DNA from: an uncultured Clostridia bacterium
Lineage (GTDB): Bacteria > Bacillota > Clostridia > Christensenellales > UBA1242
DNA length: 46,347 nt
Direction of reading: 5' to 3'
NCBI GenBank assembly: GCA_947589655.1
Contig: CANQCE010000001.1
Span: forward strand, 1-46,347
Position numbers and translations under genes: made by a program. The notes beneath the pieces were generated by a model. It had not been told where the DNA came from, did no database searches, and saw nothing but the letters and a program-made list of their open reading frames with translations. Positions 11,601 to 40,633 of the stretch are shown here, piece after piece (the first letter of the stretch is position 1; each line of letters opens with the position of its first letter).

Positions 11601-14600
11601 CGCCAATCAGTAATTTGTGCCTCATTGTAATGCGAAATGAAGCGATATCTGTATTGGTTCTGGCTTTTGGTTGTCAAATACAAAAGCCCTTTGCTTACGT
11701 TAAAATCGGTTTTTTCGTCTATGGTGTTGCCATAAATTAGCGCCTTTATGTGTTTGGAAAGCGAGTAGTTTTTCTCGCCACTTGGCACTGAAATTATTTC
11801 CATTTCAAGTGGAACATCTGTTTTTAATTCTTCTTCCGAAACAATGCCGTTTTGAACAAGCAATGAATAGTTTCTGCCAAAAATTGTGTTAAGTTCAATT
11901 TTAACATCGCCTGACTCACTGTTTTTCACCCTGTATTCATATGGTTTGGCAATTTGCTTATCTTGCCTATACACCCTAAACAAATATTCTTTTGCTTCAT
12001 CAACCCTGTTCCAAACAAGGCTTAAAGAGTTGTCGTCTTTCGCTCTTTCAAGGCTAACTTTATCCACCGCGGCAAGCCTTGAAAGTGAATAAGAATATTC
12101 GTTCGCCTTGGACATAATGTATTTTGTTCTGTCGCCGTCTTTATATGGCTGAACAGCATATATATTCAAAGTATAAGAGGTGTCTTCGTTCCAATATCCG
12201 TCCTCTGGGATAGTAAATTCAAACACTGTTCCTTCTTCCGTGTTCTCGCCGACCACTTGATATGTGTGAGAGTTATATTCAACTATATAAATGGTGTTGT
12301 CGTTGTTAAGGTCGCTGGAAATTTTAAAGCCATATTCAGTTCTGGTAATATCTGAGCCTGTTTTAACTTGCTGCAAAACTGTATATGTTTCGCTGGAAAC
12401 ACTGTTTGGGCAAGCCAAAACATATGTTTCTCCATCCACAAAATTGTTTGCAAATGCACTGATAGTAATTGTGCCGCCGTCAGCCAGATTTTGTTCAATA
12501 AATTCTTTAAGCGAATATGTAATTGTGCCGTCTACACTGTCAGTGTCTGCCACAACATATTGCGTTTCTTCAGCCTCTGTGTTGTTCTTTTTGTATTTAA
12601 TTTCAAGAACAATTCCGCCAGCAAATTCTTTTGGTCTTGCCGTTTGTGCATTAAATGACAATTTAAGGTTTCTAGAGAACCCTCTGTTTTCTTCTGGTTC
12701 TTCCGCCGTCTGTTCATTGATGATGTTTCTTTCAAATTCCACGCCTGTCAGTTCGCTTGCACGCAGAACGGTTAAAGTTTTCTCTTGAGAAGGCAATGCC
12801 GCCTCGTTTTCGCCACCCTCGCAAAGCACATAAATTTGTATTTTAAGGGCCTGCGCCGTGCCGATAAGGTTTGCAAAATCTTGATAAGGAATTGTAAGTT
12901 TGTAAGCCTCCTCTTGGTAAGAAACCATTTGTTTTGTCAAAAGCGTGTTGTCGTTTAAAACAACTTGGAACACGGCTGAATTTCCGTAGTTGCCAGTTAT
13001 CTTTATTTCAATATTTGGATTCTGTCTATTTGCATCTCCAACATAGGCAAAAGTAAACTCCTTAATTTCTGGGATAGACAGTTTTTTAATGGTTTGTGTT
13101 GTTCCATAAACATAATAGTTGTTTTCCGTCTCGCCACTTAAAAGTGCTTGTGTGCCTTTTTCGTAATAAATTGTGTCGCCTTCAATTTTATGAGGTTTTA
13201 TGTGTGCAGCAACTTGAACTTGAACATCGCCAGCCGACAGTCCGCTGATAATCTCGCGCAAATCTTTAATGTCGTTAAGGTTTATCTGTGTGTTGGTTGT
13301 TTTGTAGGTTTTGTAAGAGCCTTCTGCATCTGCCCCTTGGAAGAACACCACATATTCAAGGCCGCCTATGTTGGCGCCAAATTCGCCCCAACTGATTAAA
13401 TTGCTTGCATATGTAACATTTTTCTCTGTTTCTTGTGCAAGTTTGCTCATTGTGAGCAACTTGTAAGAAACCTCAGCACTATCAAGATAATATGTCGTTT
13501 CGTTTTCATTCAAAGAAGGAACTTCGCCAGCACCAACAACGCTTATCTTGTATGTTCCCGTTTTGCCATCAAGTGTTATTGTTCCGTTATGTATTGTGCT
13601 TTCGGTTGTAGAGCCTTGTTCCTCCGCAAAAGTAACTTTAATGCCATGGTTATATGTGGAATTGTCATCCGCAGTGACAATTTTCAATTTAAGCGTGGCT
13701 TCTTCGGTTAATGTAACGCTTTCAACAGGCGAAAGTCTGTAAACATTAATTCTATTTGACATTGCCGAGGACAGATAATATGGGTTTGTAACTTCAACGT
13801 AAAAAGTGTAGGTTATAGATGGGGCGTAGTCAGAACTAGCAAACGTCACACCTTGAGCGTTGTAATCTTGTCCCCCCTCACTAAATTCCTCCGATGGAAT
13901 AACCTCTGTGTGGGCCCTGCCAGAAGCATCTGTCCAAGCCCTATAAATCACATATTTTGTTTCGGCAAGTTTGTCTGTTGCGACGCCTTCTGGCTTTGTC
14001 CAAGTAAGAGAATATGAATCGGCAGTATTTTTAAAAGATATTTCAATTGGGGCAATTTTCCCAACGTTTAACCCATCGCTGTTCAAAGATGAAAGTGAAA
14101 CATTTGTTACACCGTCTTCCGCAACGGTTGCATTGTTTTCGTATGCCCAAACTGAAAATTCAATGTTCTCTGTTACATCCAATATGTTCCGCAATTGTGC
14201 GTTTTCAAGTTTTTGAAGAATATCGGCAATTTTAATTGTAATATTGGTCATATTTGGATTATAAAATGCCTCATCGCCTGTAACTTCTTCTTCGGTTGTG
14301 TCGCCGCCAGTAACGCTTGTTCTTACAGTTGCTTTGTTTTCAGTTTTTTGCACTTCAATTAAAAGCGTGTATCTGTCTCCGCCAGCCGTGCAAGCCATTT
14401 CAACACAATAATAATCTGCGTTCGTAATTTGTGAGTGCGTGAATTTTAACTCGCCGTTTTTATACTCCAAATTTTCTGGGGCTGTCATGCGAGTGAAATT
14501 GAATTTTGCAGGTGTGCTGTCCAAATATATAGTCTGTGCAGCGGTAAACAAGTTGTTCCCCAAAATTTCTGTTCCAAGCAAAGTGAATTGAAGGTTAAAA

Positions 14601-17128: not shown

Positions 17129-17179
17129 ATAACACCTCATTTTTTTCTCTTGGGTGAGTCGGTCACAATTTACAAGATT

Positions 17180-27557: not shown

Positions 27558-27650
27558 GTTTCACCCCTATCAAACCGCTTAAAAAAGCCAATTTAAACCT
27601 ATTATACCTCAGAAAATTTTCATTTGCAAACAAATTTTAATATGTTTGTA

Positions 27651-27687
27651 ATAAAAAATATGTCTATAATTTATTAGACATATTTTT
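27651..27687. terminator. rho-independent terminator closing the ESCRT-like operon (bidirectional shape)
   Basis: Perfect 10-bp stem AATATGTCTA (27657-27666) / TAGACATATT (27675-27684) with an 8-nt loop, flanked by A- and T-runs. It lies a few nt beyond the stop codon (27691-27693) that ends the operon's last gene. Confidence 0.6.
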
Positions 27688-27690
27688 AAA

Positions 27691-30600
27691 TTATTCTTCG
27701 CTTGGCAATTGCCATTTTAAAATTGGGGCTTGTCCAGTTTGCAAAAGCCAAACTTCTTCGTCAAACCCAAACTTTGCATCATATGGGGCATTTATAATTT
27801 CGCAGTTCTGCTCGCCGCCAAAGCCGCCAATCTCGCCACAAACATTTCCATCATTTGCTATTGCGTAGCAATATTGCATCCTGCCGGAAAGTTGCCCGAT
27901 GATTTGCCCATTTTTTAAGGTTGTGCTAATGCTCACTTGGCAGTAACTGTGTTGAACCGCATCCGCTGTTGCATGCGTGTATCTGCCATATAAGCCGCCA
28001 ACATATCCCTGTTTGCCTTCCGCCGTTATGCTACCAACCGCATAGTTGTTTTGCGAACTAAATTGCCCCTCGCCAATCAGTCCGCCGGCAACAACATTTT
28101 TTGCTTGCCCAGTTACATTAATCTGCGCATTGCTGAACACCTCTTTAACCGCATTATTCTTGCTGGAATCTTTTGCCAAAGCGCCGCCCACAACAACATT
28201 GCCGCTTGCCGCTTGCACATTAATTTGCCCAACATAAGAACTTTGCCATATTAGCGCGTTCTTTTTTTCGCTTGTGTTCTGCCCAACAATTCCGCCAACT
28301 GTCACATCTTTTTCAACCGTCAAGATTATTGTAACTCCGCTGGCACAATTTTTAATTTCTCCCACATTTTTGCCAACAATTCCGCCAACCACTTTGGCAT
28401 TTGTTAAGTTGACATTTCCATTTACAGTGCAATTTTCAATTTCTCCGCTGTTGATTTGTGCAAGTCCGCCAAATATGGAGTATTTCTGAGAAGTGGCATC
28501 AATTACAATGTTCAAATTTTCAACCGTGCCGACATTTTCCTTTAAAAGCGCAGTTTTCAAACCACTTATTGTATGCCCATTTCCGTTTAAACTGCCATAA
28601 AGTTTTATGCTTTTCCAAGTTCTATCTTTCATGTCCAAATCTTTTTCTAACACAAAACTGTAATGCCCTGCATTGTGCAAAAGTGTGGAGAATTCTTTCT
28701 CATTATTTATCTTCATTGTGTTTGGCACAAGATAAAAACTCAGCACAAAAAGTATCACATTTGTCAGCCCCAGCCCAAACAGCGTTAAGAACGCCCTTGC
28801 ATTTCTCTTTTCCAGAACACTTTTCTTAAGCACATAAAAAGTGAAATTGCCAATGGCAATGCAAACGCTGTAAATCATGGTGACAATCAAAAACGTCTCG
28901 TTAAAATACAGATACACCTGTTTTGGCGAGAAAAGCGAAACAATTAATAGCAGCGATGAAAACGCCAGCGGAAAAAACTCCAAAAAGATGCACAAAAATT
29001 TGAGCAGAACCATTCGCCTTCTGGCATTTTCCAAAACATCTTCTCGTGTTTTTATGCCTTTCTTTTCAGGTTCAACATTTATCGTTTTCAAGGACGGCTC
29101 TCTGCCCATTACAGAAAGCACGCTCACAGAGGTGTCAAGTGATAGGTCAAGTGCAGACAACCTTGTTTTAACCCTTGATACAACATCTTCGAACTGGTCA
29201 TAATCTCGGCATTTTTGTATCTCTTGCAAATTTTGTTCAAGCGGTTTAAGTTGCAAGCGATAGTAGTCCACGCCCTTTTTGGCTTTAAGCCCCTCTTGTT
29301 TTTCTATTTCCAGCAAAATTTTTTGATTTCTCATCAAAAAGTCGTTAAGCCTATCCATTATGCCTTTTTTATCATAATCATCAGGAACAAACTCTGAGCG
29401 CTCACCTTGATATAGGTTTGCGCGGCTAACAACGCCAGCGTAAAACTCGTCATGCTCGTCATCGCCAAGTTCAAGCAGCGTTTCCCACTCTGGCAAAGTG
29501 TCTGCCTTTGCTTTGGATGTTACAAGTTCTTGGTCGGTGCGGCAGTGGCATTTTATTTTTATAAGTTGCCAGTAAAGTTCCACCTTATCGGCACATTTTG
29601 AAATTGCAATGGTCATGTATTTTTCGGCTGGCTTAAAATATCGCCAAGCCTGAAATTTTTCTGCTATATCTTTGCAAAGTGCCCCTAACTTTTCGCCGTC
29701 CGACATATAAGAAAGATAAAAATCAATTTGTGCCTGCGCCTCTTGTAAATCAAAGAAAACAACTGGCATAATTTTGCTGATAACCGCACTGACAAAAGCA
29801 TCTCTGGCGTTTTGATTCATGTATTTAAGTGTGTCTTCAAGTTGCTGGCGGTCACGGTAAGTTAAAATGTCTTTTGTGCTTTTAAAGTTCCTCATTAATA
29901 TTGCAAGGTTGCTTTGTTCGTGCCCAGCATCAAGTTCCAAAATTTTATTGTAATAATCTTTATCGTCACTTTTCTGAGCAAGAGAAAAGTAAAAGTTAAT
30001 GAACCTGTCAACATCTTCTTTGTCAAAACATTTAACAACTTTTTGAACAAGTTCGCTGTCCAGCGTTTCTATTGCTTTGTTTTCTGCCGCAGATATAAAA
30101 TCTTCGCGGCTAGGGGTTTTATACGAGGCAAGTTCCAACAAAAACTGGTTGTAAAACTCCGCACTGTCCTGCTGCATTACAAGTTTTTCCCATCTTTCAA
30201 CAAAGTCCTCGGCAAAATTTTTGCTGGCATATCTTAAAATGTTTGAAATTTGTTCTCTGTCCGAAAAATTGCTCAGTTTTTCAAAGAATTCGTCCTCTGT
30301 TCTAATTTTTTTATCACAGAGCAGGCGCGCAAACAAAAGTTCGCTGCTGTATGGGTTTTCTTCCAAAGTTTCGTCCAAAATTTTGTCTGCCGTTTGAAAA
30401 TCGCCATTTTTTAATGCAAGAAACAGCCACTTTGTTTTGCCCTCGCTGCTAACCTCCACATTTTCAACACTGTAATGGCCAAGTTCGTTTGGAGAGATGC
30501 TTTCAACATTGGCATATTCTTTTTTCTTTGGATTAACTCTTTTTAAATTGATAGTTTCAATTTTGGCAGTTTCGATTGCCGCATTTTTTTCTTCAGTTTT

Positions 30601-31443
30601 TACAAGAGTTTCCAAATCTTGAAGCAAAGAAACGGAGTTTATATCAAAAACGCTTTTGCAATTTTGCAAAGTAGGCGGCAACTGCTCTTTTTTTATCTTT
30701 TTCACATCCACTATTAAAATAAGGCTTGTGGATGTTTTTTGTTTTTTGGAAATTCTTAAATTGTATCTTTCTATAATGTGGCGAAAAACGCCCAAGTCGG
30801 TCAAGGAATTTAACTGAAGAATGAGCATTTTACTTGTTTCTAATGCACGGAAAGTATCTTCTTCGTTCTCTTTTGTTTGCAAAAAAAGATTGTAATAAGA
30901 AAGTTCCAATTTGTTTAAAAGTTCGGCAATATTGTTATGTATTTGTGGGTTTTCATCCCCAGCCGTGCAAAAAATGACGTCATACAGTTGCTTTGACGAT
31001 GACATCTCATATGTTCGCTTAATTCTGTCCACCCTTTTTGCCAAATCGGTGTAACTTTTCGCTTCTTCTGGTGGGGCAAGTTCAACCGCCTTTAAAAAAT
31101 CTGAATCGCTTGAAAGGGAAGGTATGCTGTCCGCAAAAAAGCGTGGGCGTCTGGAAGTGCCCCTTTTGTTCGTGAACAAAACTATTTGATTTTTTGCAAG
31201 TGCTTTGCCAAAATAACCTTGAAAAGACAGAGGATACTGCTCGATGATGTTTTTAAATTGTTCCACAGCCTCATCGAACCTGAAGCCTCTGGAAAGTTCG
31301 TTTGCCAAAGCAATTAAAACTTCTTCCTCTTTAGAGGAATTTTCGTCAACATACAAAGAGCCACAGAACATACATTTAACCATGTTCTGCCCAACAACTT
31401 TATATTTTTTGCCTCCGCAGTTGTTGCAAACCCTTTCTCTCAT
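27691..31443 (-). CDS. 1,250-aa multidomain membrane protein: N-terminal zinc ribbon, long cytoplasmic TPR-like helical region, 3 TM helices, extracellular GLUG-repeat domain
   Basis: The ATG at 31443 follows AAGGA. Zinc ribbon CNNCGG...CMFCGSLY. TPR-like segments FRFDEAVEQFKNIIEQYPLSFQGYFGKALAK and GDFQTADKILDETLEENPYSSELLFARLL. TM block RRRMVLLKFLCIFLEFFPLAFSSLLLIVSLF / FLIVTMIYSVCIAIGNFTFYVL / AFLTLFGLGLTNVILFVLSFYLV. The positive-inside rule gives N-in/C-out. The C-terminus has YGSLNGNGHTISGL, then GGLAQINSGEIENC, VGGIVGKNVGEIKNC, VGGIVGQN, VAGGLIGEG and YVGGLYG (GLUG repeats). Confidence 0.85.
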   Translation of the reverse strand: MRERVCNNCGGKKYKVVGQNMVKCMFCGSLYVDENSSKEEEVLIALANELSRGFRFDEAVEQFKNIIEQYPLSFQGYFGKALAKNQIVLFTNKRGTSRRPRFFADSIPSLSSDSDFLKAVELAPPEEAKSYTDLAKRVDRIKRTYEMSSSKQLYDVIFCTAGDENPQIHNNIAELLNKLELSYYNLFLQTKENEEDTFRALETSKMLILQLNSLTDLGVFRHIIERYNLRISKKQKTSTSLILIVDVKKIKKEQLPPTLQNCKSVFDINSVSLLQDLETLVKTEEKNAAIETAKIETINLKRVNPKKKEYANVESISPNELGHYSVENVEVSSEGKTKWLFLALKNGDFQTADKILDETLEENPYSSELLFARLLCDKKIRTEDEFFEKLSNFSDREQISNILRYASKNFAEDFVERWEKLVMQQDSAEFYNQFLLELASYKTPSREDFISAAENKAIETLDSELVQKVVKCFDKEDVDRFINFYFSLAQKSDDKDYYNKILELDAGHEQSNLAILMRNFKSTKDILTYRDRQQLEDTLKYMNQNARDAFVSAVISKIMPVVFFDLQEAQAQIDFYLSYMSDGEKLGALCKDIAEKFQAWRYFKPAEKYMTIAISKCADKVELYWQLIKIKCHCRTDQELVTSKAKADTLPEWETLLELGDDEHDEFYAGVVSRANLYQGERSEFVPDDYDKKGIMDRLNDFLMRNQKILLEIEKQEGLKAKKGVDYYRLQLKPLEQNLQEIQKCRDYDQFEDVVSRVKTRLSALDLSLDTSVSVLSVMGREPSLKTINVEPEKKGIKTREDVLENARRRMVLLKFLCIFLEFFPLAFSSLLLIVSLFSPKQVYLYFNETFLIVTMIYSVCIAIGNFTFYVLKKSVLEKRNARAFLTLFGLGLTNVILFVLSFYLVPNTMKINNEKEFSTLLHNAGHYSFVLEKDLDMKDRTWKSIKLYGSLNGNGHTISGLKTALLKENVGTVENLNIVIDATSQKYSIFGGLAQINSGEIENCTVNGNVNLTNAKVVGGIVGKNVGEIKNCASGVTIILTVEKDVTVGGIVGQNTSEKKNALIWQSSYVGQINVQAASGNVVVGGALAKDSSKNNAVKEVFSNAQINVTGQAKNVVAGGLIGEGQFSSQNNYAVGSITAEGKQGYVGGLYGRYTHATADAVQHSYCQVSISTTLKNGQIIGQLSGRMQYCYAIANDGNVCGEIGGFGGEQNCEIINAPYDAKFGFDEEVWLLQTGQAPILKWQLPSEE

Positions 31444-31452
31444 CAAACATCC

Positions 31453-32601
31453 TTATTTCTTTTTTGTAGTTTTTCTCTTTAAAACATAGCCGTTAAGTTC
31501 TTGGTTATATTTTTCAAATTCAGCCATCTCTTTTGGCGTTACACTTGGCGGCATGGTTTCAAGCACACGCGTGAAATCTTCGTTTGTGACTAAAACAACT
31601 TTGTCGGTGGCAATGGCCTTTAAAAGAGGCTCGTCTTTGGCACGGTCGCAAAGTTCTTCAATGTCGGCGCCGCTATAATTTTCCGTTTGCGCAACAATTT
31701 TGTCTATATCAAAATTTTTGGCAACAGGCACGCCCTTCATGTTCTTTTCAAGCATAAATTTTCTGGCTGGCGCATCTGGAAGTGGAAGATAAATTTTCTG
31801 CGAAAAACGGCCAGAGCGCATGGCGGCAGTGTCCACATCCCAAGGCCTGTTGGTTGCGCCCAAAAGCAAAAGATTTGGGTTTCTTCCGGCAAAGCCGTCA
31901 ATTTGCTGCAAAAACTCGTTCACGCGCTTATCGTTGTGTGTGTCAATTCCACGTTTGCCGAACAAGCCATCCATTTCGTCAATAAAAATAATTGCCCTGT
32001 CTTGTTTGTTGGCTTCTTCAAACAGGGAGTTTATGTTTTTCTCACTTTCGCCCACCCATTTGCTGACAATATCTGAGCCCTTTACAGCATAAAATTTGGC
32101 TTGTGCCTCGTTTGCTATCGCTTTTGCAATCATGGTCTTTCCAGTTCCCGGTGGACCATACAAAAGGATTCCGCCGCCCGATTTTTTGCCATACATTTTA
32201 TACTTTTCTGGATATTTAACAGGGTTCAGCATTTTTATTGTAATTGCCCTTTTAACATCTTCAAGGCCAGCAACATCATCAAAACTGATGTTTGGAATTT
32301 GTGCCGTCTGCCACTGCTTGATGTCTTCGTCTTGTTCCTGTTTTAAGTCTTTTTTCTCTTGTTTTGCTGCCTTTGTGCTGTTGCCAAGGTTATCCGAAAT
32401 TTTAACCAATCCGCGTGCCCTTTCCATGCGAACTTCTTTCAGTTTCCCTTGGCTCTGCTTTGCCATTTGCATCATTGTTTCGCTGGCGAGCAAAAAATTA
32501 CGCTTTGCCAAGGCAACATTGCCCTGATTTCGCGCCTCTTTGCCCTTTCTCATGTAAAGTTCAAATGTGTCAGAAAGCACATTGATGTTTGTTTCTTTCA
32601 T
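31453..32601 (-). CDS. Vps4-like (meiotic-clade) AAA+ ATPase with MIT-like N-terminal helical domain
   Basis: The ATG at 32601 lies 5 nt after GGAG. Walker A GPPGTGKT and Walker B IIFIDEMD. Pore loop SKWVGESEKNINSLFEEA (compare Vps4 SKWMGESEK). LLGATNRPWDVDTAAMRSGRFSQKIYLPLPD (compare Vps4 LGATNIPW...RRFE.RIYIPLPD). C-terminal PPSVTPKEMAEFEKYNQELNG (compare the Vps4/spastin C-terminal helix SV...L..Y..W...FG). The N-terminal roughly 60 aa are helical and A/K/R-rich (KGKEARNQGNVALAKRNFLLASETMMQMAK). Confidence 0.85.
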   Translation of the reverse strand: MKETNINVLSDTFELYMRKGKEARNQGNVALAKRNFLLASETMMQMAKQSQGKLKEVRMERARGLVKISDNLGNSTKAAKQEKKDLKQEQDEDIKQWQTAQIPNISFDDVAGLEDVKRAITIKMLNPVKYPEKYKMYGKKSGGGILLYGPPGTGKTMIAKAIANEAQAKFYAVKGSDIVSKWVGESEKNINSLFEEANKQDRAIIFIDEMDGLFGKRGIDTHNDKRVNEFLQQIDGFAGRNPNLLLLGATNRPWDVDTAAMRSGRFSQKIYLPLPDAPARKFMLEKNMKGVPVAKNFDIDKIVAQTENYSGADIEELCDRAKDEPLLKAIATDKVVLVTNEDFTRVLETMPPSVTPKEMAEFEKYNQELNGYVLKRKTTKKK

Positions 32602-32613
32602 TTGCACTCCAAT

Positions 32614-33216
32614 TTATTTGTTATCGGCCTCGCTGTCAATCTTCTTGCGGATTTCTTCCATTTCTTTGTCGATATTTTCAGATGAAAGTTCGTCTTGGCT
32701 GGCTTGTTCCATGATGAACTTTTCAAGTTCTTTATCGCTCATGGCGTTGCCGTCTTTGTCTTTGCCTGCATTGTAGAAAGTTTCTTGGCTCATCTGCATA
32801 AAGTTGTCCATTTGGTCAGTTTGAGTTTCAACTGCAAGCATGGCTTCTTCAAACTGTGCCTGAATTTTGGTGAACTCTTTGGCATCAGCAAGTTTGCTCA
32901 TCTCCCTTGAGATATCGCTCATGCCACGAAGAAATTCGGATGTCATCATGGTAACATCTTTCATTTGAGCGGTAATTTCAAAATTCAAAAGCATTTCTTG
33001 TGCACGCTTTTGCTGCTGAACTGTCATTTTATAGCCAGAAAGCGCCAAGTTGAATTGTGCGTCAAGACCTTTCATTTTTGCACGTTTTGCCGCATCAATG
33101 AAAACCTGCTTTTGGTCTTCCAAGCGGTTAATCTGCTTGTTCATTGTGTTGATTGTTCTTTTAATCAACATCTTCTTTTCAATTTCTTTTTGTTGTTTAG
33201 ATTTAAAAATTCCCAT
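32614..33216 (-). CDS. ESCRT-III superfamily protein, Snf7/CHMP-like paralog A (200 aa)
   Basis: The N-terminus MGIFKSKQQKE resembles CHMP MGLFGK. The helical-hairpin region KQINRLEDQKQVFIDAAKRAKMKGLDAQFNLALSGYKMTVQQQKRAQ parallels CHMP2/3 (R.l.r....l....k.aakkG......iLAk..vr.rk). MSKLADAKEFTKIQAQFEEAMLAVETQTDQMDNFM parallels the Mn.p.i..im.eFe.q....e...e.m.d block. Acidic C-terminal tail DELSSENIDKEMEEIRKKIDSE. Confidence 0.7.
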   Translation of the reverse strand: MGIFKSKQQKEIEKKMLIKRTINTMNKQINRLEDQKQVFIDAAKRAKMKGLDAQFNLALSGYKMTVQQQKRAQEMLLNFEITAQMKDVTMMTSEFLRGMSDISREMSKLADAKEFTKIQAQFEEAMLAVETQTDQMDNFMQMSQETFYNAGKDKDGNAMSDKELEKFIMEQASQDELSSENIDKEMEEIRKKIDSEADNK

Positions 33217-33219
33217 TTT

Positions 33220-33828
33220 TTATTCCTCCATTTTAATTTTTTTCTTTTTTATTGGCTCAGCATTTTCTTCTAGCAAATCTTTTTGGTCGTTTAAAACATT
33301 TTCTTTTTCAAACAAGGTTAAAATCTCGTCTTCGGTTTTGCCAATGCCATAAATTGGTTGGTTAAGTTCATATGCCGATTGAACCTCTGTGAAAAGTTCG
33401 TCAGCCGAGGTGAGCACATCTTCCGAGGCAATTCTTGTTTGCAAGGCTTTGTTCAAAAATTTTGCCAATCTTTTTTGGTCAACCAGAAGTTCGCTTAAAG
33501 GCACTTTGGTTTGAGTTTTAAAGAATGTGTTGCTATCGTATGCCTCTTTAAGTTTGTTCATAAGCCTTATGTTGTAAAGCAAATACATACCTCGTTCAAT
33601 GCAAGTTTGCTTTTCTTCGTTCAGGTGCGAAATCTTTTTGGCGTAGAAAAGTTGCAAATCTTTGCTCTTTTCTTTTTTGCCCTTGTCAATAAGCGCGTCA
33701 ATTTCTTTCAGTTTTTGATAAACTTCCGCCTCCACCGTTCGCTCTTGCCGCTCTAATTCGCATATGGAATTAACAAGGTCCTCTCGGTTTAAGTTTTTAA
33801 ATTTGTTTCTTCTAAATGGCCACCACAT
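33220..33828 (-). CDS. ESCRT-III superfamily protein, Snf7/CHMP4-like paralog B (202 aa)
   Basis: The aromatic N-terminus MWWPFRRNKF is comparable to the Snf7 N-terminal membrane-insertion motif. All-helical coiled-coil core with LQLFYAKKISHLNEEKQTCIERGMYLLYNIRLMNKLKEAYDS (compare Snf7 AL.aLrrKK..E.ql..i.g....ie.q...le.a..n). The tail is acidic then basic. It is the same size as paralog A and separated from it by 3 nt. Confidence 0.6.
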   Translation of the reverse strand: MWWPFRRNKFKNLNREDLVNSICELERQERTVEAEVYQKLKEIDALIDKGKKEKSKDLQLFYAKKISHLNEEKQTCIERGMYLLYNIRLMNKLKEAYDSNTFFKTQTKVPLSELLVDQKRLAKFLNKALQTRIASEDVLTSADELFTEVQSAYELNQPIYGIGKTEDEILTLFEKENVLNDQKDLLEENAEPIKKKKIKMEE

Positions 33829-33831
33829 ACG

Positions 33832-34191
33832 CTAATACTGTTCCCCCTCTTTTATTTTGTAAATCCTCTCTAACAAGTCTTGATATCTTTTCTTTTGGTC
33901 CTCATCTGCCAAGGCAAGCGCCTTTTCGCACTCTGGCAAATATATTGCACTTTTGTATTTAACTGGCTCGGAATATAAAATGTCTTCATTTGAAATTTCA
34001 AACTTTGCCAGCATAAGCCCCCACCACGCATCTGCACAATCGGGGTCAAGTTCCAGCGCCAATTGAAAGTTCATGTTTGCCTGCTTGAAAAAGCCCTCTT
34101 TTAAATTTAAATAGCCAAGCGTCAACTCTTTTAAAGTGCTTTCTTTGTTTTGCTCTGGCACATTTTTTGATGTTAAATAGGTGCGTTTCAT
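33832..34191 (-). CDS. small TPR-like protein (119 aa)
   Basis: GYLNLKEGFFKQANMNFQLALELDPDCADAWWGLMLAKFEI is a TPR-type helix pair. The same W/F-G-x-x-L-A-K signature recurs in the 1,250-aa protein of the operon. An ATGA overlap with the upstream gene implies translational coupling. Confidence 0.65.
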   Translation of the reverse strand: MKRTYLTSKNVPEQNKESTLKELTLGYLNLKEGFFKQANMNFQLALELDPDCADAWWGLMLAKFEISNEDILYSEPVKYKSAIYLPECEKALALADEDQKKRYQDLLERIYKIKEGEQY

Positions 34192-34598
34192 CCGTTTTGT
34201 TCATCCTTCTTGCGTTGTATTATGTAGGCTTCAATTTCTTCCAGCACCCTAAAACACGTTTCTTGAGTGTTGTCTTTTGCCACCATAATTTTAAGGTCGT
34301 CAAGTTTGTTGGCAATTTTTGTGTCAACAAGTTGCACCTTGTCATTTGTGGTCGGATTGAAAAACCTGATTGTGTCTTTCACCTCCACAAGCCTGCGGCA
34401 AAGTGCATCGTTGCCGTTTGCATAAACAATTATGCTCTCCACATTTGCCACCATGTTTTCAATAAACTTTTTGTTCTTTATAATGCCGCGCGAGCCGCCA
34501 CGCTTTTCGTCAAGCGGCTTTTTTATGTATTCACGAACAATGTAGAAAACCGCAAGCCCAACAATGACAATTAAAGTGATAATGTATAATGCAAGCAT
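34188..34598 (-). CDS. N-terminally membrane-anchored protein (136 aa), function unknown
   Basis: TM helix MLALYIITLIVIVGLAVFYIV, then a basic stretch and a soluble helical domain. A strong RBS GGAGGGGG lies just upstream of the ATG. Confidence 0.65.
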   Translation of the reverse strand: MLALYIITLIVIVGLAVFYIVREYIKKPLDEKRGGSRGIIKNKKFIENMVANVESIIVYANGNDALCRRLVEVKDTIRFFNPTTNDKVQLVDTKIANKLDDLKIMVAKDNTQETCFRVLEEIEAYIIQRKKDEQNG

Positions 34599-34610
34599 AT
34601 TTCCCCCTCC

Positions 34611-35423
34611 TTATAACCTTGTCCCACAAGAAGAACAAAACTTTGAATTTTCTGGATTGACATTTCCACAAACAGGGCAAATATTTTTGCTGTTTGTTTT
34701 AAGCCCACACTCTGGGCAGAATTTGGCACCTTCGCTTAAAACCGCACCGCATCCTGCGCAAATATTGGTTTGTTTTCCGCTTTTTAACGCCTGCAATCTT
34801 TTTAAGTCTTCGCCATCTATAATAATGTTAAGAATGTTAAACGAAAACACGGCAATTCCATACTCGCTTTGCAACTTGTGCGACAGTTGCCCCAAAATTT
34901 TGTCCGACATCTCTTTTTTGCAATTGGAAAGTTGATTGTATGGCACACGATGTTGTTTTATGTAATCTAAAAGGCACAATTCTGTAACCGAAACAACATT
35001 AGATTGCAAACGCTCTTGCAATGCTTCCGCCGTTAAATTTTGAGAAACACCAATCAAATACAAGTAGCACTTTCTTGGGTCGCCAATTTGAACTTCAAAA
35101 TCGCCACTGAAACCAACGCGGTAATTTTCGCCGGCAAACTCGTCAAAAAATGTGAACTTTTGCGCCGTTCCCCAAAGCAATTTAAGTTTTGCCGTTTTGC
35201 TCATAAAAAGCACTTCAAGCACACTGTTTTCATCCGTTTCTTTTTCCAAAAAGTCAGAAATTTGATACTTTCCAGATTTTAAAGTTTGAAGCATTTGCCC
35301 ATCTTTGATAAGAATTGCATTGTGAGTTTCTGGCACAATAAGTGTCGTTTTAGGGCTTTGAACCGCCACTCTGGTGAAAAGTTGGGAATTACTCCCAGAA
35401 AACTGAATTCTATTTTGTTCCAT
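34611..35423 (-). CDS. SPFH (Band_7_1 / B. subtilis YdjI-like) domain protein with two C-terminal zinc ribbons
   Basis: The N-terminal pattern TLIVPETHNAILIKDGQMLQTLKSGKYQI...VLFMSKTAKLKLLWGT...YRVGFSGDFEVQIGDPRKCY...GIAVFSFNILNI resembles the YdjI/'virion core protein'-type SPFH family. The C-terminus ICAGCGAVLSEGAKFCPECG...ICPVCGNVNPENSKFCSSCG has two CxxC-N-CxxC ribbons. Confidence 0.65.
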   Translation of the reverse strand: MEQNRIQFSGSNSQLFTRVAVQSPKTTLIVPETHNAILIKDGQMLQTLKSGKYQISDFLEKETDENSVLEVLFMSKTAKLKLLWGTAQKFTFFDEFAGENYRVGFSGDFEVQIGDPRKCYLYLIGVSQNLTAEALQERLQSNVVSVTELCLLDYIKQHRVPYNQLSNCKKEMSDKILGQLSHKLQSEYGIAVFSFNILNIIIDGEDLKRLQALKSGKQTNICAGCGAVLSEGAKFCPECGLKTNSKNICPVCGNVNPENSKFCSSCGTRL

Positions 35424-35458: not shown

Positions 35459-35488
35459 AGTATAACAAAATTTTTTTATCAAAGTCAA
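35459..35488 (-). promoter_or_regulatory. candidate sigma-A promoter of the seven-gene ESCRT-like operon
   Basis: On the minus strand: TTGACT, 18-nt spacer, TGtTATACT (extended -10). The -10 lies about 35 nt upstream of the ATG at 35423, which has RBS GAGGGA. Confidence 0.4.
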
Positions 35489-39301: not shown

Positions 39302-40633
39302 ATGGAAAAATGCATAGCTTCCATTGCAACGCCTTTGGGCAAAGGTGCAATATCTATAATTAGGATGAGTGGCAAAGATTGTTTAAAAATTGCCCTCAAA
39401 ATTTTTCATGCAAAAAATCTGGAAAATGTTGAACCTCGCCACATGTATTTTGGGCAATTGGAACTTTCTGCAAATGCAGTGGAACAATGCCTTATGGTGT
39501 TTTTTAAAGCACCGTTTTCTTACACTGGCGAAGATGTTGTAGAGTTCCAAATTCACGGAGGCGTTTTAATTGCGCAAAAAGTGCTTGAAAGGTGTTTGGC
39601 TGCAGGCGCAATTTTGGCTGAGCCGGGCGAATTCTCCAAGCGTGCCTTTATAAACGGAAAAATAACATTAGATAAAGCCGAGGCCATTGCAAGCGAAATA
39701 AACGCCGAAACCGAAGGCGAACTTTTCAGCAGTTTGCAGGTGACAAATGGGCTTTTGGCGGACAAAATTTTAAAAGCACAAGACGAACTTAAATTGTTGC
39801 TTGCGCAACTTGAAGTTGGCATGGATTATCCAGACGAAACCGAAGAAGTGCGCCTAAAGGAAGATGTGTTTGAAAAATTGCAAGCAATAAAACACGACAT
39901 CTGCGAAATTTTGGACAATTCGCACGCGGCAAAATATTTACGCAACGGAATTAATGTGGCACTTATTGGTCGCACAAATGTGGGCAAAAGCAGCATTATG
40001 AACGCCTTGCTTGGACAAGAGAGGGCCATTGTTACAGATATTCAAGGCACAACCAGAGACAGCCTTGTGGAAAGTTTTTCTCATAACGGAATTAAAATTA
40101 ACCTATACGACACCGCTGGTATCCGCGAGACCAAAGATAAAGTTGAACAGATTGGCATAACAAAAAGTAAGCAAAGCCTGCAGCAAGCGGATGTGGTGTT
40201 GTTTGTTTTGGATGGCAGCCAAAAGTTACATAAAGATGATGAACAAATTGCAAAACTCATTGGCGAAAAGCCGTTTATCTGCGTTGTGAACAAAATGGAC
40301 AAGCAGCGCGTGCTGGAAAAGCAAAAAAACGAAATTGAAGTTTCTGCCCTTATTAGAAAGAACATTAAAGCGTTAAAAGACAAAATTGTAGATTTGGTTA
40401 TAACAAAAGAAATTGACTTTAACAAACTTGTGCTTTCTAACGAGCGCCAAGGACAAATTTTAAATGAAGCCGTTGCACTTTTGGAAAAAGCAATTGTGGA
40501 AAAAAATCAAACATTAGACATAACCTCAATGCTGATTAAAAATGTTTGGAATTGCTTGGGAAAAATTACAGGAAATACAGAAAACGAAGATATTATTGAC
40601 CTTATTTTTTCAAAATTTTGTTTGGGAAAATAA
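39302..40633 (+). CDS. mnmE: tRNA modification GTPase MnmE (TrmE)
   Basis: N-terminus IASIATPLGKGAISIIRMSG, G-domain GRTNVGKSS / DTAGIRET / NKMD, and the C-terminal FCLGK motif. Confidence 0.95.
   Translation: MEKCIASIATPLGKGAISIIRMSGKDCLKIALKIFHAKNLENVEPRHMYFGQLELSANAVEQCLMVFFKAPFSYTGEDVVEFQIHGGVLIAQKVLERCLAAGAILAEPGEFSKRAFINGKITLDKAEAIASEINAETEGELFSSLQVTNGLLADKILKAQDELKLLLAQLEVGMDYPDETEEVRLKEDVFEKLQAIKHDICEILDNSHAAKYLRNGINVALIGRTNVGKSSIMNALLGQERAIVTDIQGTTRDSLVESFSHNGIKINLYDTAGIRETKDKVEQIGITKSKQSLQQADVVLFVLDGSQKLHKDDEQIAKLIGEKPFICVVNKMDKQRVLEKQKNEIEVSALIRKNIKALKDKIVDLVITKEIDFNKLVLSNERQGQILNEAVALLEKAIVEKNQTLDITSMLIKNVWNCLGKITGNTENEDIIDLIFSKFCLGK

Follow-up and report, generated by a model that had tools for sequence, protein, structure and literature searches.

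To our knowledge, reviews place the ESCRT-III/Vps4 machinery, which cuts and repairs membranes, outside the bacteria. A seven-gene operon in a gut bacterium of the Clostridia, located in a stretch of 46,347 nucleotides (the window), raises the question of whether such a machinery is encoded there. Its features are as follows (positions within the window):

35459-35488, minus strand: promoter-like site, TTGACT, 18-nt spacer, TG-extended TATACT (consensus match only)
34611-35423, minus strand: G1, SPFH domain (Band_7_1, residues ~70-205) and two C-terminal zinc ribbons (219-270)
34188-34598, minus strand: G2, 136 aa, N-terminal TM helix (1-26; hydropathy) and basic C-terminal domain
33832-34191, minus strand: G3, 119 aa, weak TPR protein
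33220-33828, minus strand: G4, 202 aa, all-helical, aromatic/basic N-terminus (MWWPFRRNKFK)
32614-33216, minus strand: G5, 200 aa, all-helical, by its profiles Snf7-family ESCRT-III, nearest the Vps2/CHMP2 (A-type) group
32638-32673, minus strand: MIM1-like amphipathic helix at the C-terminus of G5 (residues 182-193, IDKEMEEIRKKI)
31453-32607, minus strand: G6, 384 aa, MIT-like N-terminus, one AAA cassette (147-276), AAA_lid_3, Vps4_C-like helix (340-370)
32338-32577, minus strand: MIT-like three-helix region of G6 (residues ~11-90; family profile)
27691-31446, minus strand: G7, 1251 aa, zinc ribbon (1-35), TPR (42-84), degenerate TIR (~139-275), TPR/helical region, three TM segments (811-908), GLUG (912-1251)
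30622-31032, minus strand: degenerate TIR-like domain of G7 (residues ~139-275; hhalign)
28723-29016, minus strand: transmembrane region of G7, hydrophobic segments 811-841, 848-873 and 883-908 (hydropathy)
27694-28713, minus strand: GLUG-repeat domain of G7, putatively extracellular (Pfam Glug, 25.0 bits; cutoff 20.5)
27649-27686, minus strand: terminator-like hairpin, A/U-rich, 13 bp, followed by a U-tract, after the G7 stop codon

All seven open reading frames lie in the same direction on the minus strand between 27691 and 35423, with gaps of 12, -4, 3, 3, 6 and 6 nt from G1 to G7, so that the tightly packed operon described in the original prediction is borne out, as is the domain content of its proteins in domain searches, hydropathy analysis and AF2 models. 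A promoter-like site fitting the anticipated sigma-A-like promoter lies ~36 nt upstream of G1; it agrees with the consensus at 10/12 positions, is the best minus-strand sigma-70-like site of the region and the sole one on this strand with a TG extension. The hairpin begins 8 nt past the G7 stop codon, in a 96-nt stretch with an MFE of -16.4 kcal/mol (z = -3.15 versus shuffles). Hairpin and U-run were thus correctly recognized, but calling the terminator strong was an overstatement, since the stem is A/U-rich with two G-C pairs only, which is also why a consensus scanner overlooked it.

The G5 family comprises 321 clusters in an exhaustive search. Pfam Snf7 is matched by 15/93 family members (best E=1.4e-9), the Snf7 cutoff is reached or exceeded by two distant members, and the Pfam families that recur among the matches of these 93 do not include PspA. 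Against the PDB, the family profile finds CHMP2A first (E=9.8e-6, residues 7-143), followed by CHMP1B, CHMP3, CdvB and Vps24, and does not match PspA/Vipp1. A tblastn search of 7.3 Gb of plasmids returned one G5 match (E=1e-8), which belongs to an ESCRT locus of Thermococcus; the family recognizes this protein, Tp_188 (hmmsearch, E=1.8e-27), and hhalign against it gives a probability of 98.9% (E=3e-17; reversed controls ~0.1). Judged by these profiles, G5 is a divergent Snf7-family ESCRT-III protein rather than a generic coiled coil, and lies closer to Snf7/CHMP than to PspA, as had been proposed. A direct Pfam Snf7 match was found neither for the window G5 nor for G4. The AF2 model of G5 shows the predicted ESCRT-III-like layout (α1/α2 hairpin, α4, α5, α6), but Foldseek with the models of G4 and G5 gave nothing significant (best E=0.15-0.16; pLDDT 65-67). 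Within their final 35 residues, 95% of 80 Clostridial orthologs show the pattern of the MIM1-like helix, h-x3-h-x2-h-[KR][KR], versus 0.8% of shuffled tails, suggesting that this helix may bind a MIT domain.

Of the two Snf7/CHMP-like proteins originally proposed, G5 is therefore well placed, while G4 can be graded only as a probable, more divergent second ESCRT-III subunit, because each single test is weak, though consistent with the others. In the AF2 model a helical hairpin (15-52/56-99) is followed by shorter helices, and the best Foldseek match is to CdvB2 filaments (probability 0.92), which at E=0.16 is not significant. Alignment of G4 with the G5 family by hhalign yielded E=2e-4 in one run and 0.003-0.009 in another, and with Tp_201, a paralog from the Thermococcus ESCRT locus, E=1.8e-4 (reversed control 0.7).

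The AAA cassette of G6 is 45% identical to the verified cassette of yeast Vps4, compared with 39.7% for p97 D2, and the pore loop reads SKWVGESEK, as against SKWMGESEK in yeast Vps4. The CdvC model spans G6 end to end (residues 11-369), while the AAA core profiles of NCBIfam score CdvC and CDC48 equally. In neighbour-joining trees with few references (CdvC, katanin, spastin and PAN left out), G6 joins yeast and archaeal Vps4, and all Cdc48 D1/D2 cassettes fall outside, with bootstrap values of 97% (HMM-guided) and 70% (MAFFT); within this thin sampling, G6 thus goes with Vps4 and not with Cdc48 or FtsH. With the N-terminal family profile, 2mpk (chitin synthase 1, E=4e-3) comes first among the PDB matches, and VPS4B entries (2cpt, 4u7y and 2zam, E=0.5-4) come next; Pfam MIT is matched by 6/24 orthologs (best E=1.9e-4). 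Vps4_C reaches 19.5 bits in the window G6 (cutoff 21.3) and exceeds the cutoff in two Planctomycetota orthologs. Since MIT and Vps4_C of the window protein lie just under their Pfam cutoffs, both domains are supported at the family level. By cassette identity, architecture and tree, G6 is a Vps4-like ATPase, as expected.

G7 had been described as a Zn-ribbon/TPR/3-TM/GLUG protein, which is correct but overlooks a degenerate TIR domain. Pfam does not detect TIR in G7 itself; in hhalign, the segment from the window lineage aligns with the TIR_2-positive region of distant partners (99.1%, E=8e-19; reversed control E=0.38). The conserved glutamate of the VKNEW motif is replaced by Leu or Ile in the window lineage, so that the domain appears to have lost its putative catalytic residue and is taken to be catalytically dead. 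In related Clostridia, TIR_2 scores over the Pfam cutoff in 9/9 scanned G7-related partners (33-41 bits), and with WxxNEW intact the domain looks catalytically competent; many of these loci encode two such TIR_2-bearing paralogs. An RRR motif before TM1 and a K/R-rich TM2-TM3 loop suggest, by the positive-inside rule, that the N-terminus of G7 is inside and its C-terminus, and with it GLUG, outside. The proposed GLUG domain itself is well supported, with matches in 19/22 orthologs (best E=1e-11), and the first PDB match of its profile is IgA1 protease (E=1e-10).

Among the accessory proteins, G1 matches PF13421 with 50.7 bits (cutoff 24), as well as Zn_Ribbon_1 and DZR, and its Band-7 domain with C-terminal zinc ribbons agrees with the proposed YdjI-like identity; hydropathy revealed no TM segment. 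G2, for which domain and family profile searches found no match, probably has its basic C-terminal domain in the cytoplasm, and the TPR matches of G3 range from E=0.004 to 0.035.

The gene set is conserved across the 80 species-level Clostridial loci sampled (per-gene counts refer to 70 or 79). G5 is followed by G6 in 70/70 loci and directly preceded by G4 in 75/79; G1 is found in 69/70 and G2 in 66/70, while G3 (51/70) is missing from the group with 54-66% identity and is thus confined to the closer lineage. Given this conservation, the arrangement is not fortuitous. The locus is single-copy and syntenic in essentially every sampled species of the lineage and has conserved housekeeping flanks; its setting is chromosomal housekeeping and not a defence island. 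Beyond the Clostridia, genes of the G5 and G6 families (Snf7-like and MIT-AAA) are adjacent in two Planctomycetota loci (L081, L087) and a few genes apart in a Phycisphaerae locus (L086), which has one PspC neighbour.

A Vps4-like gene paired with a TPR/TM gene has been noted before in other bacterial phyla, as a pair only (Ravi et al., 2024, mSystems; PMC11237479). G6 and G7 constitute this same pair, in which a Vps4-like ATPase of MIT type precedes a large TPR and multi-TM protein, but here and in the examined Planctomycetota loci Snf7-family genes are immediate neighbours of the ATPase gene, and the TPR/TM partner carries TIR and, in the lineage of the window, also a GLUG ectodomain. Band-7 with a C-terminal zinc ribbon is the architecture of a pspA-operon partner (PMC11237479), YdjI is reported to bring PspA to the membrane, and one type of archaeal ESCRT system also includes SPFH + zinc-ribbon proteins (PMC10936438). 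Like B. subtilis pspA-ydjGHI, the operon combines an ESCRT-III-superfamily filament protein with such a protein and a membrane protein; it differs in that its filament proteins are two and of Snf7 type rather than PspA_IM30, and in its dedicated Vps4-like ATPase, which Psp systems lack. A close system is archaeal ESCRT-III/Vps4 of the euryarchaeal "Main" clade (Makarova et al., 2024), exemplified by the Thermococcus peptonophilus plasmid locus NZ_CP014751.1, in which several ~200-aa ESCRT-III paralogs lie beside a single-cassette MIT/Vps4_C ATPase; its Vps4 is 33% identical to G6, and the G5 and, weakly, G4 matches described above are to its proteins. In contrast to the archaeal systems, it is found here in a bacterium whose contig also carries peptidoglycan and LTA-type genes, and the operon lacks winged-helix (ESCRT-II-like), Cas2-like/DUF3568, kinase and phosphatase genes, its accessories being SPFH with zinc ribbons, a TM protein, a TPR protein and the TPR-TIR-TM-GLUG adaptor. 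With eukaryotic ESCRT-III (CHMP2/Vps2-type) and Vps4 it shares the MIM1-like end helix and the pore-loop motif, and CHMP2A is the best solved-structure match of G5; the searches run found none of the ESCRT-0, -I, -II, Bro1 and Vta1 components of the eukaryotic system, a beta-domain insertion is not evident in G6, judged from its length, and the system would act at a bacterial plasma membrane beneath a cell wall.

We consider it probable that these seven genes specify a bacterial membrane-remodelling machine of ESCRT-III/Vps4 type, likeliest for membrane maintenance or repair. G5 and G4 would co-polymerise on the cytoplasmic membrane face, anchored by their aromatic/basic N-termini and recruited by a platform of G1 and single-pass G2. 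G6 would dock on G5 at its MIM1-like helix and pull subunits out of the polymer at the expense of ATP, leading to its turnover, constriction and disassembly. With its cytoplasmic zinc ribbon, TPR, dead TIR and helical scaffold, G7 may nucleate the machine or fix its position, and the GLUG ectodomain may touch the cell envelope; G3 would be a lineage-specific TPR accessory. Homology, domain architectures and the conserved gene set are what the sequences show, whereas polymerisation, MIT-MIM docking, disassembly by ATP and the parts played by G1, G2 and G7 are inferred.

That the resemblance is superficial, the ~200-aa proteins being generic coiled coils and the ATPase a Cdc48/FtsH-like chaperone for unrelated membrane-protein quality control, is very improbable. 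The missing direct Snf7 match, the Foldseek result and the NCBIfam tie would fit it, but the G5 profile matches (E down to 1e-27), the position of G6 among Vps4-type ATPases and G5-G6 adjacency across two phyla already disfavour it. A machine for reverse-topology scission rather than repair, acting in extracellular vesicle budding or in a late step such as final abscission in division or sporulation, is a minority possibility to be taken seriously: archaea and eukaryotes use Snf7-type ESCRT-III and Vps4 to divide and to release vesicles (PMC7615534; PMC10936438), minimal Asgard systems likewise have two ESCRT-III subunits (PMC11804906), exposed GLUG could tether the machine to a specific place on the cell wall, and the operon is not far from mnmE, in the region that contains the GC-skew minimum. 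Against scission, the operon has no link to FtsZ, divisome or sporulation genes, and its SPFH/zinc-ribbon partner, together with PspC in L086, indicates a Psp-type stress/repair context.

Less likely still is an anti-phage or conflict system, in which the TIR membrane protein would be the sensor for infection or a damaged envelope, with the ESCRT-III/Vps4 module either repairing the damage or carrying out an abortive response at the membrane. The intact TIR_2 partners and their paralog pairs, Ser/Thr kinases beside the Planctomycetota modules and fusions of distant G5-family members to a RuvB-like AAA and NERD nuclease, or to FtsK ATPases, all found elsewhere in the family, would fit such a role equally well, and G6 shares generic AAA similarity with the defence ATPase IetA. 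Defence islands tend to be patchy and variable, whereas this locus is near-universal in the sampled lineage; PADLOC gave no defence matches for G1-G5 or G7, no homologs were found in 50,697 phage records, the plasmid search gave the one archaeal match only, and the TIR of the window lineage lacks the putative catalytic glutamate.

The physiological task of the membrane-remodelling machine is most probably to maintain or repair the cytoplasmic membrane when the envelope is stressed, a guess by analogy that is guided by the likeness to PspA/YdjI and the single PspC neighbour. A gut bacterium of the Clostridia would thus possess a conserved operon for an ESCRT-III and Vps4-like machinery, contrary to the view of bacteria held in reviews.

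The operon at 27691-35423 comprises seven genes, numbered G1 to G7 in the order of transcription, which follow one another with intergenic gaps of 12, -4, 3, 3, 6 and 6 nt, all as minus-strand ORFs, confirming the tightly packed, co-directional arrangement of the original prediction. The single strong hairpin terminator that it also proposed stands in part: a hairpin with a U-run is present behind G7, but "strong" says too much for a hairpin that is A/U-rich.

Features of the operon, in the order of transcription
35488-35459, minus strand: promoter-like site, TTGACT-18-TATACT with TG extension, the best on the strand, just upstream of G1
34611-35423, minus strand: G1, 270 aa, SPFH protein with zinc ribbons
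34188-34598, minus strand: G2, 136 aa, transmembrane (TM) protein
33832-34191, minus strand: G3, 119 aa, TPR protein
33220-33828, minus strand: G4, 202 aa, helical protein
32614-33216, minus strand: G5, 200 aa, helical protein
31453-32607, minus strand: G6, 384 aa, AAA ATPase
27691-31446, minus strand: G7, 1251 aa, zinc ribbon/TPR/TIR/TM/GLUG protein
From 8 nt past the G7 stop codon, minus strand: terminator-like hairpin of 13 bp, then a U-run; z = -3.15

G5 on its own has zero Pfam matches, and a profile of its close homologs (88% mean identity) retrieved nothing relevant from the PDB. An exhaustive search extended the G5 family to 321 clusters at the 50% identity level. Pfam Snf7 is matched individually by 15 of 93 diverse members (best E=1.4e-9), and its gathering cutoff is reached or exceeded by two distant ones, P0340 and P0361. 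For the 93-sequence family profile, human CHMP2A ranks first in the PDB (E=9.8e-6; residues 7-143 against 4-143), ahead of CHMP1B, CHMP3, CdvB and Vps24, and PspA/Vipp1 is absent at E<=10. PspA_IM30 (PF04012) is matched by neither G4 nor G5 and is absent from the recurrent families of the 93 G5 homologs, and PspA/Vipp1 was also absent when the PDB was searched by sequence with G4. A PspA-type identity of the filament proteins was ruled out on these grounds, Vipp1 appearing solely as a non-significant Foldseek match.

A tblastn search of 7.3 Gb of plasmid sequence with G5 gave a single match, a 188-aa protein of a Thermococcus peptonophilus plasmid (NZ_CP014751.1; E=1e-8). The same locus also holds two more ~200-aa proteins, a Ser/Thr kinase, an ATPase with AAA and Vps4_C domains (35.8 bits for Vps4_C) and a PP2C phosphatase, a layout that corresponds to the euryarchaeal "Main" ESCRT clade as described by Makarova et al. 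2024 (PMC10936438). The G5-family profile matches the Thermococcus protein over its full length (hmmsearch, E=1.8e-27), and hhalign aligns family and protein with a probability of 98.9% (E=3e-17; reversed control, E=0.13). Judged by these profile comparisons, G5 is a Snf7-family ESCRT-III protein, as had been anticipated when it was placed closer to Snf7/CHMP than to PspA: the family profile leads to CHMP2A and to the protein of an archaeal ESCRT locus, and never to PspA.

The AF2 model of G5 (pLDDT 67) contains helices at residues 7-48, 52-106, 112-151, 161-173 and 180-198, in which alpha1 and alpha2 form a long hairpin that is followed by alpha4, a short alpha5 and a helix at the end. With this model Foldseek placed CdvB, Asgard ESCRT-IIIB, CHMP1B and Vipp1 at E values of at least 0.2, amid generic helical bundles. 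Since zero significant Foldseek matches were obtained with the AF2 models of G4 and G5, structure is not used as primary evidence for either protein. The terminal helix bears the motif IDKE[ML]EE[LI][KR]KK in 95% of 80 Clostridial G5 orthologs, against 0.8% of shuffled tails. The MIM1 consensus is (D/E)xxLxxRLxxL(K/R), which the helix fits, but with E in place of R. In its sequence the helix resembles the MIM1 of the late-acting Vps2/CHMP2/CHMP1 subunits, which binds the Vps4 MIT domain in a helical Type-1 interaction (PMC9477494). A strict MIM1 regex is matched by 14-23% of the wider G5 family, so that the canonical MIM1 is a feature of the Clostridial clade.

For G4, zero matches were found in Pfam and zero in the PDB by sequence. 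Pfam likewise fails to recognise the equivalent paralogs of the genuine archaeal (Thermococcus) ESCRT locus, and its silence on G4 is therefore uninformative. The G4 family aligns collinearly with the G5 family at an hhalign probability of 45% (E=2e-4), and at 4-10% (E=0.003-0.009) with another match-state setting; with Tp_201, a different ~200-aa Thermococcus paralog, it aligns at 48.5% (E=1.8e-4 over 117 columns; control, E=0.7). Among the Foldseek matches of the AF2 model, archaeal CdvB/CdvB2 account for 8 of the top 14, with probabilities of up to 0.93 (0.92 for the top CdvB2 matches) and non-significant E values of at least 0.16. The placement of G4 directly before G5 in 75/79 loci fits as well. 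Each test is weak, and all of them point in the same direction, which makes G4 a probable second ESCRT-III protein; of the two expected in the operon, G5 is borne out.

G6 consists of one AAA cassette with AAA_lid_3, its Walker B motif, DEMD, lies around residues 210-211, and the NCBIfam CdvC model covers residues 11-369. Vps4_C scores 19.5 bits in the G6 of the window, just under the cutoff of 21.3, which is passed by two of the three Planctomycetota orthologs scanned (26.5 and 22.3 bits); the Thermococcus reference ATPase reaches 35.8 bits. Pfam MIT is not matched by the G6 of the window and is matched by 6 of 24 orthologs (best E=1.9e-4). A profile of the first ~95 residues found chitin synthase 1 (2mpk) at the top of the PDB matches (E=4e-3), and the VPS4B entries 2cpt, 4u7y and 2zam next (E=0.5-4); these are MIT-domain structures. 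The matches are weakly consistent with an MIT domain at the N-terminus of G6.

NCBIfam scores for G6 are tied between CdvC (1.7e-73) and CDC48 (3.9e-73), and since profile scores cannot split the two, trees were built with named references. These were taken from plasmid records and PDB output and comprised Vps4-type ATPases of Thermococcus and Halomicrobium, Cdc48 of Rhizobium and Natrononativus (D1, D2), E. coli FtsH, human p97 D1 and D2, and yeast Vps4, whose sequence was confirmed by 100% identity with PDB 6bmf. A neighbour-joining (NJ) tree of the cassette unites the G6 family and the archaeal Vps4-type ATPases with 97% bootstrap support; in the tree from an independent MAFFT alignment to which yeast Vps4 was added, yeast Vps4 forms a clade with the G6 family and archaeal Vps4 at 70%, all Cdc48 cassettes lying outside. 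Compared with yeast Vps4, G6 shows 45.0% identity, with p97 D2 39.7%, with FtsH 36.1% and with Thermococcus Vps4 35.8%, and its pore loop SKWVGESEK matches SKWMGESEK of yeast. On trees with few references, thin sampling and a distance method only, G6 is a Vps4-like ATPase, grouping with Vps4 and not with Cdc48 or FtsH; the original assignment of G6 to a Vps4-like clade thus agrees with the NJ trees, in which it joined neither FtsH, CbbX nor another non-Vps4 clade.

In several distant Clostridia loci the G6 orthologs are 100-320 residues longer than G6 of the window (481-531 aa in L058, L062, L065, L067, L070, L073, L076 and L077; 704 aa at L066:2439-4550), and as the position of Walker A is unchanged, the additional residues form a C-terminal extension. 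Four of these loci, L058, L062, L067 and L070, are also without a separate G7-related gene. On a Halomicrobium salinisoli plasmid (NZ_CP084464.1, L090:5284-7266), a 430-aa "ATP-binding protein" aligns with 98% of G6, the N-terminal region included; its gene is directly preceded by a 225-aa hypothetical gene, and the neighbourhood also encodes a PQQ beta-propeller protein and a PP2C phosphatase. This locus probably belongs to the haloarchaeal Vps4-type systems that Makarova et al. 2024 described.

A genome scan from a six-sequence G5 alignment, with a reach confined to Clostridia, yielded 80 species-level loci, all in Clostridia MAGs, with G5 identities from 93% down to 54%. Among the loci with enough flanking sequence, G6 is found within 6 kb downstream of G5 in 70/70, G1 accompanies G5 in 69/70 and G2 in 66/70, and G4 is immediately upstream of G5 in 75/79. 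Any G7-related gene is present in 61/65 loci, a full-length G7 in 47/65 and G3 in 51/70. These counts define a core of G1-G2-G4-G5-(TIR/TPR partner)-G6, and the gene combination, which was expected to be conserved, keeps its core partners in nearly all of the loci counted. Between G5 and G6, which are 6 nt apart in the window, an insertion of about 930 nt is present in L006, L010 and L011, and one of about 460-490 nt in L026 and L029.

Remoter members of the G5 family occur in Planctomycetota and Phycisphaerae MAGs, where the Snf7-like gene is located near G6-family ATPases that score 321-371 bits against the G6 model and have an MIT-like N-terminus at E=1e-7 to 2e-13. Three such loci (L081:6748-14800, L087:5189-9734 and L086:3691-11628) contain a gene of the G5 family and one or two MIT-AAA ATPases of the G6 family, the pair being adjacent in L081 and L087 and a few genes apart in L086, as well as two extra ~200-aa helical proteins without Pfam recognition and a conserved upstream protein of ~265-275 aa. 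Ser/Thr kinases flank two modules of this type; an RDD domain is present in one kinase and zinc ribbons in another. The Snf7-like gene of L086 has a PspC gene as its neighbour. The layout of the three loci resembles that of the kinase-containing archaeal "Main" ESCRT loci. Since the Clostridia and the Planctomycetota loci both carry it, the pairing of a Snf7-like gene with an MIT-AAA gene is conserved across two bacterial phyla. Linkage to ESCRT-III genes is criterion ii of Makarova et al. 2024 (PMC10936438), and such linkage was found for G6, after G5 in all 70 Clostridial loci and near G5-family genes in Planctomycetota.

Distant members of the G5 family also form the N-terminal ~190 residues of fusion proteins (P0291, P0352, P0370, P0302, P0311, P0361, P0296, P0301 and P0305), in which the C-terminal partner is a RuvB-like AAA+ with winged helix and NERD nuclease, a RuvB-like AAA+ alone, or FtsK_alpha with an FtsK/SpoIIIE ATPase. 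In the locus L088:2336-4699, the genes for a 386-aa AAA of the G6 family and a free-standing 192-aa member of the G5 family (hhalign probability 99.9%) stand directly before that of a RuvB-NERD fusion. Such Snf7-like fusions are undescribed in the papers found by our literature search.

Among the accessory proteins, G1 combines Band_7_1 (PF13421, 50.7 bits) with two C-terminal zinc ribbons and has no TM segment. The SPFH partner in the pspA operon of B. subtilis has the same Band-7 and zinc-ribbon architecture (Ravi et al. 2024, PMC11237479), so that the proposed likeness of G1 to YdjI, here a likeness of domain architecture taken from the published description, holds for a protein encoded beside a filament protein. 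Proteins with SPFH, coiled-coil and zinc-ribbon parts are known from one archaeal ESCRT system type, and YdjI is cited as localising PspA to the membrane (Makarova et al., PMC10936438). G2 has a single N-terminal TM helix followed by a basic domain, and G3 is a weak TPR protein of the closer lineage only.

G7 has three hydrophobic segments within residues 811-908, and from the placement of positive charges the first ~810 residues are predicted to be cytoplasmic and the last ~340 to lie outside the cell. Its C-terminal domain is Glug (25.0 bits, cutoff 20.5; 19 of 22 orthologs positive), with the IgA1 protease as top PDB match (E=1e-10), in keeping with the GLUG ectodomain described originally, the outside location following from the predicted topology. 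The cytoplasmic part opens with a zinc ribbon and TPR, and includes a degenerate TIR domain at residues about 139-275 that had been overlooked. In the genomes with 54-66% identity, zinc ribbon, TPR and then TIR_2 (33-41 bits, Pfam cutoff 28) were found in all nine G7-related partners scanned, several with extra TPR matches past the TIR, and hhalign aligns the segment of the window lineage with the TIR_2-positive region of these partners at 99.1% probability (E=8e-19; reversed control, E=0.38). The catalytic glutamate of TIR domains sits in a WxxxE motif. Opposite the WVKNEWSRF of the partners stands FRHIIERY or LKNLYDRF in the window lineage, with Leu or Ile aligned to the glutamate, and because the Trp and Glu of the WVKNEW motif are lost, the TIR of G7 is probably non-catalytic. 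G7 as an active TIR enzyme was dropped, given the absence of the catalytic glutamate. In Coproplasma-type genomes the TIR/TPR partner gene is tandemly duplicated and sits between G5 and G6 (L061:10689-12347 and 12423-14171; also L064, L069, L071, L074, L078 and L080). Most of these duplicated TIRs look catalytically competent, with FDVF[IL]S and WVKNEW kept; the window lineage, by contrast, has one long, TIR-degenerate, GLUG-bearing G7, placed after G6.

Close homologs belong to MAGs of uncultured gut Clostridia, one source being named "Candidatus Caccovivens", and remoter relatives to MAGs of "Candidatus Coproplasma" and of the Christensenellaceae type. The flanks are ordinary chromosomal genes, namely folD, pflB, two ABC exporters, a Cu/Zn SOD, an Amidase_3 with peptidoglycan-binding domains, an LtaS-like sulfatase and mnmE. 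A mis-binned archaeal contig was ruled out by the amidase, the sulfatase, folD, pflB and mnmE on the same 46-kb contig, and an origin from a mobile element or a defence island by the conserved synteny together with no phage match, one archaeal plasmid match and none from PADLOC. The cumulative GC skew has its minimum at about 36-38 kb of the window, and gene orientation flips from mostly minus to mostly plus at ~35.4-39.3 kb, with mnmE next (39302-40633); skew minimum, orientation switch and mnmE position suggest that the operon is close to the replication origin. A giant ORF of 3842 aa, without a Pfam match at E<=1e-5, occupies 5612-17140 on the minus strand.

From homology and established ESCRT biology, G4 and G5 would polymerise on the inner face of the membrane, and G6 hexamers would dock via their MIT domains on the tail helix of G5 and extract subunits, leading to remodelling and recycling. 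Recruitment of the polymer would fall to an SPFH platform of G1 and G2, in the way that YdjI recruits PspA, and G7 may position or nucleate the machine, its GLUG domain coupling it to the cell envelope. Three points make membrane maintenance or repair the favoured role: the links to SPFH/YdjI and PspC, the synteny with housekeeping genes, and a TIR that in the window lineage has apparently lost catalysis. Vesicle budding or a division step is plausible for the same machinery. The system may also serve in conflict or immunity, as related loci carry intact TIR domains, kinases and nuclease fusions; of the seven proteins, G6 alone had matches in PADLOC-DB v2, to the AAA models IetA and TRIP13, and these reflect generic AAA similarity, while G1-G5 and G7 had none.

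In recent reviews, bacteria are described as having no clear Vps4 homologue and ESCRT-III of the PspA/Vipp1 type only, and Snf7-type ESCRT-III is assigned to archaea and eukaryotes (PMC7615534, PMC7619361, PMC10936438, PMC8281802). Ravi et al. 2024 (PMC11237479) described a "MIT+Vps4-AAA -> TPR+TM(s)" pair that moved from archaea into five bacterial phyla, Firmicutes not among them, and in which snf7 is displaced. G6-G7 matches this pair, but divergent Snf7-family genes lie beside the ATPase here and in the Planctomycetota loci examined. A paper describing this operon was not found in our literature searches. We classify the operon as a bacterial ESCRT-III/Vps4 system with a distinctive accessory set, a conserved bacterial locus with both ESCRT-III and Vps4 parts, contrary to the reviews, and, because relatives are present in Planctomycetota, not a one-off. 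This changes the phyletic picture for dating the coupling of ESCRT-III to its ATPase, and the seven genes make a compact set from which ATP-driven ESCRT remodelling could be reconstituted. The accessory logic, an SPFH and zinc-ribbon platform and a TPR-TIR-TM adaptor with a predicted extracellular GLUG domain, is undescribed for any ESCRT system. The operon also raises the question of whether scission of the ESCRT type serves a gut Firmicute in repairing its membrane, releasing vesicles or dividing. Tentatively, and with slightly less than even confidence, we propose that bacteria, at least a whole gut Clostridia lineage and Planctomycetota, possess Snf7-type ESCRT-III and a dedicated Vps4-type ATPase as genuine machinery maintained by vertical descent, which would work as a two-subunit, ATP-recycled membrane scission or repair system with SPFH and TIR/TPR transmembrane adaptors connected to it. 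If this is true, the partnership of ESCRT-III and Vps4 would not be an archaeal-eukaryotic invention: it would either be far older or have passed repeatedly between domains, and through the TIR link membrane repair of the ESCRT type would be connected in bacteria with sensing of the immune type.
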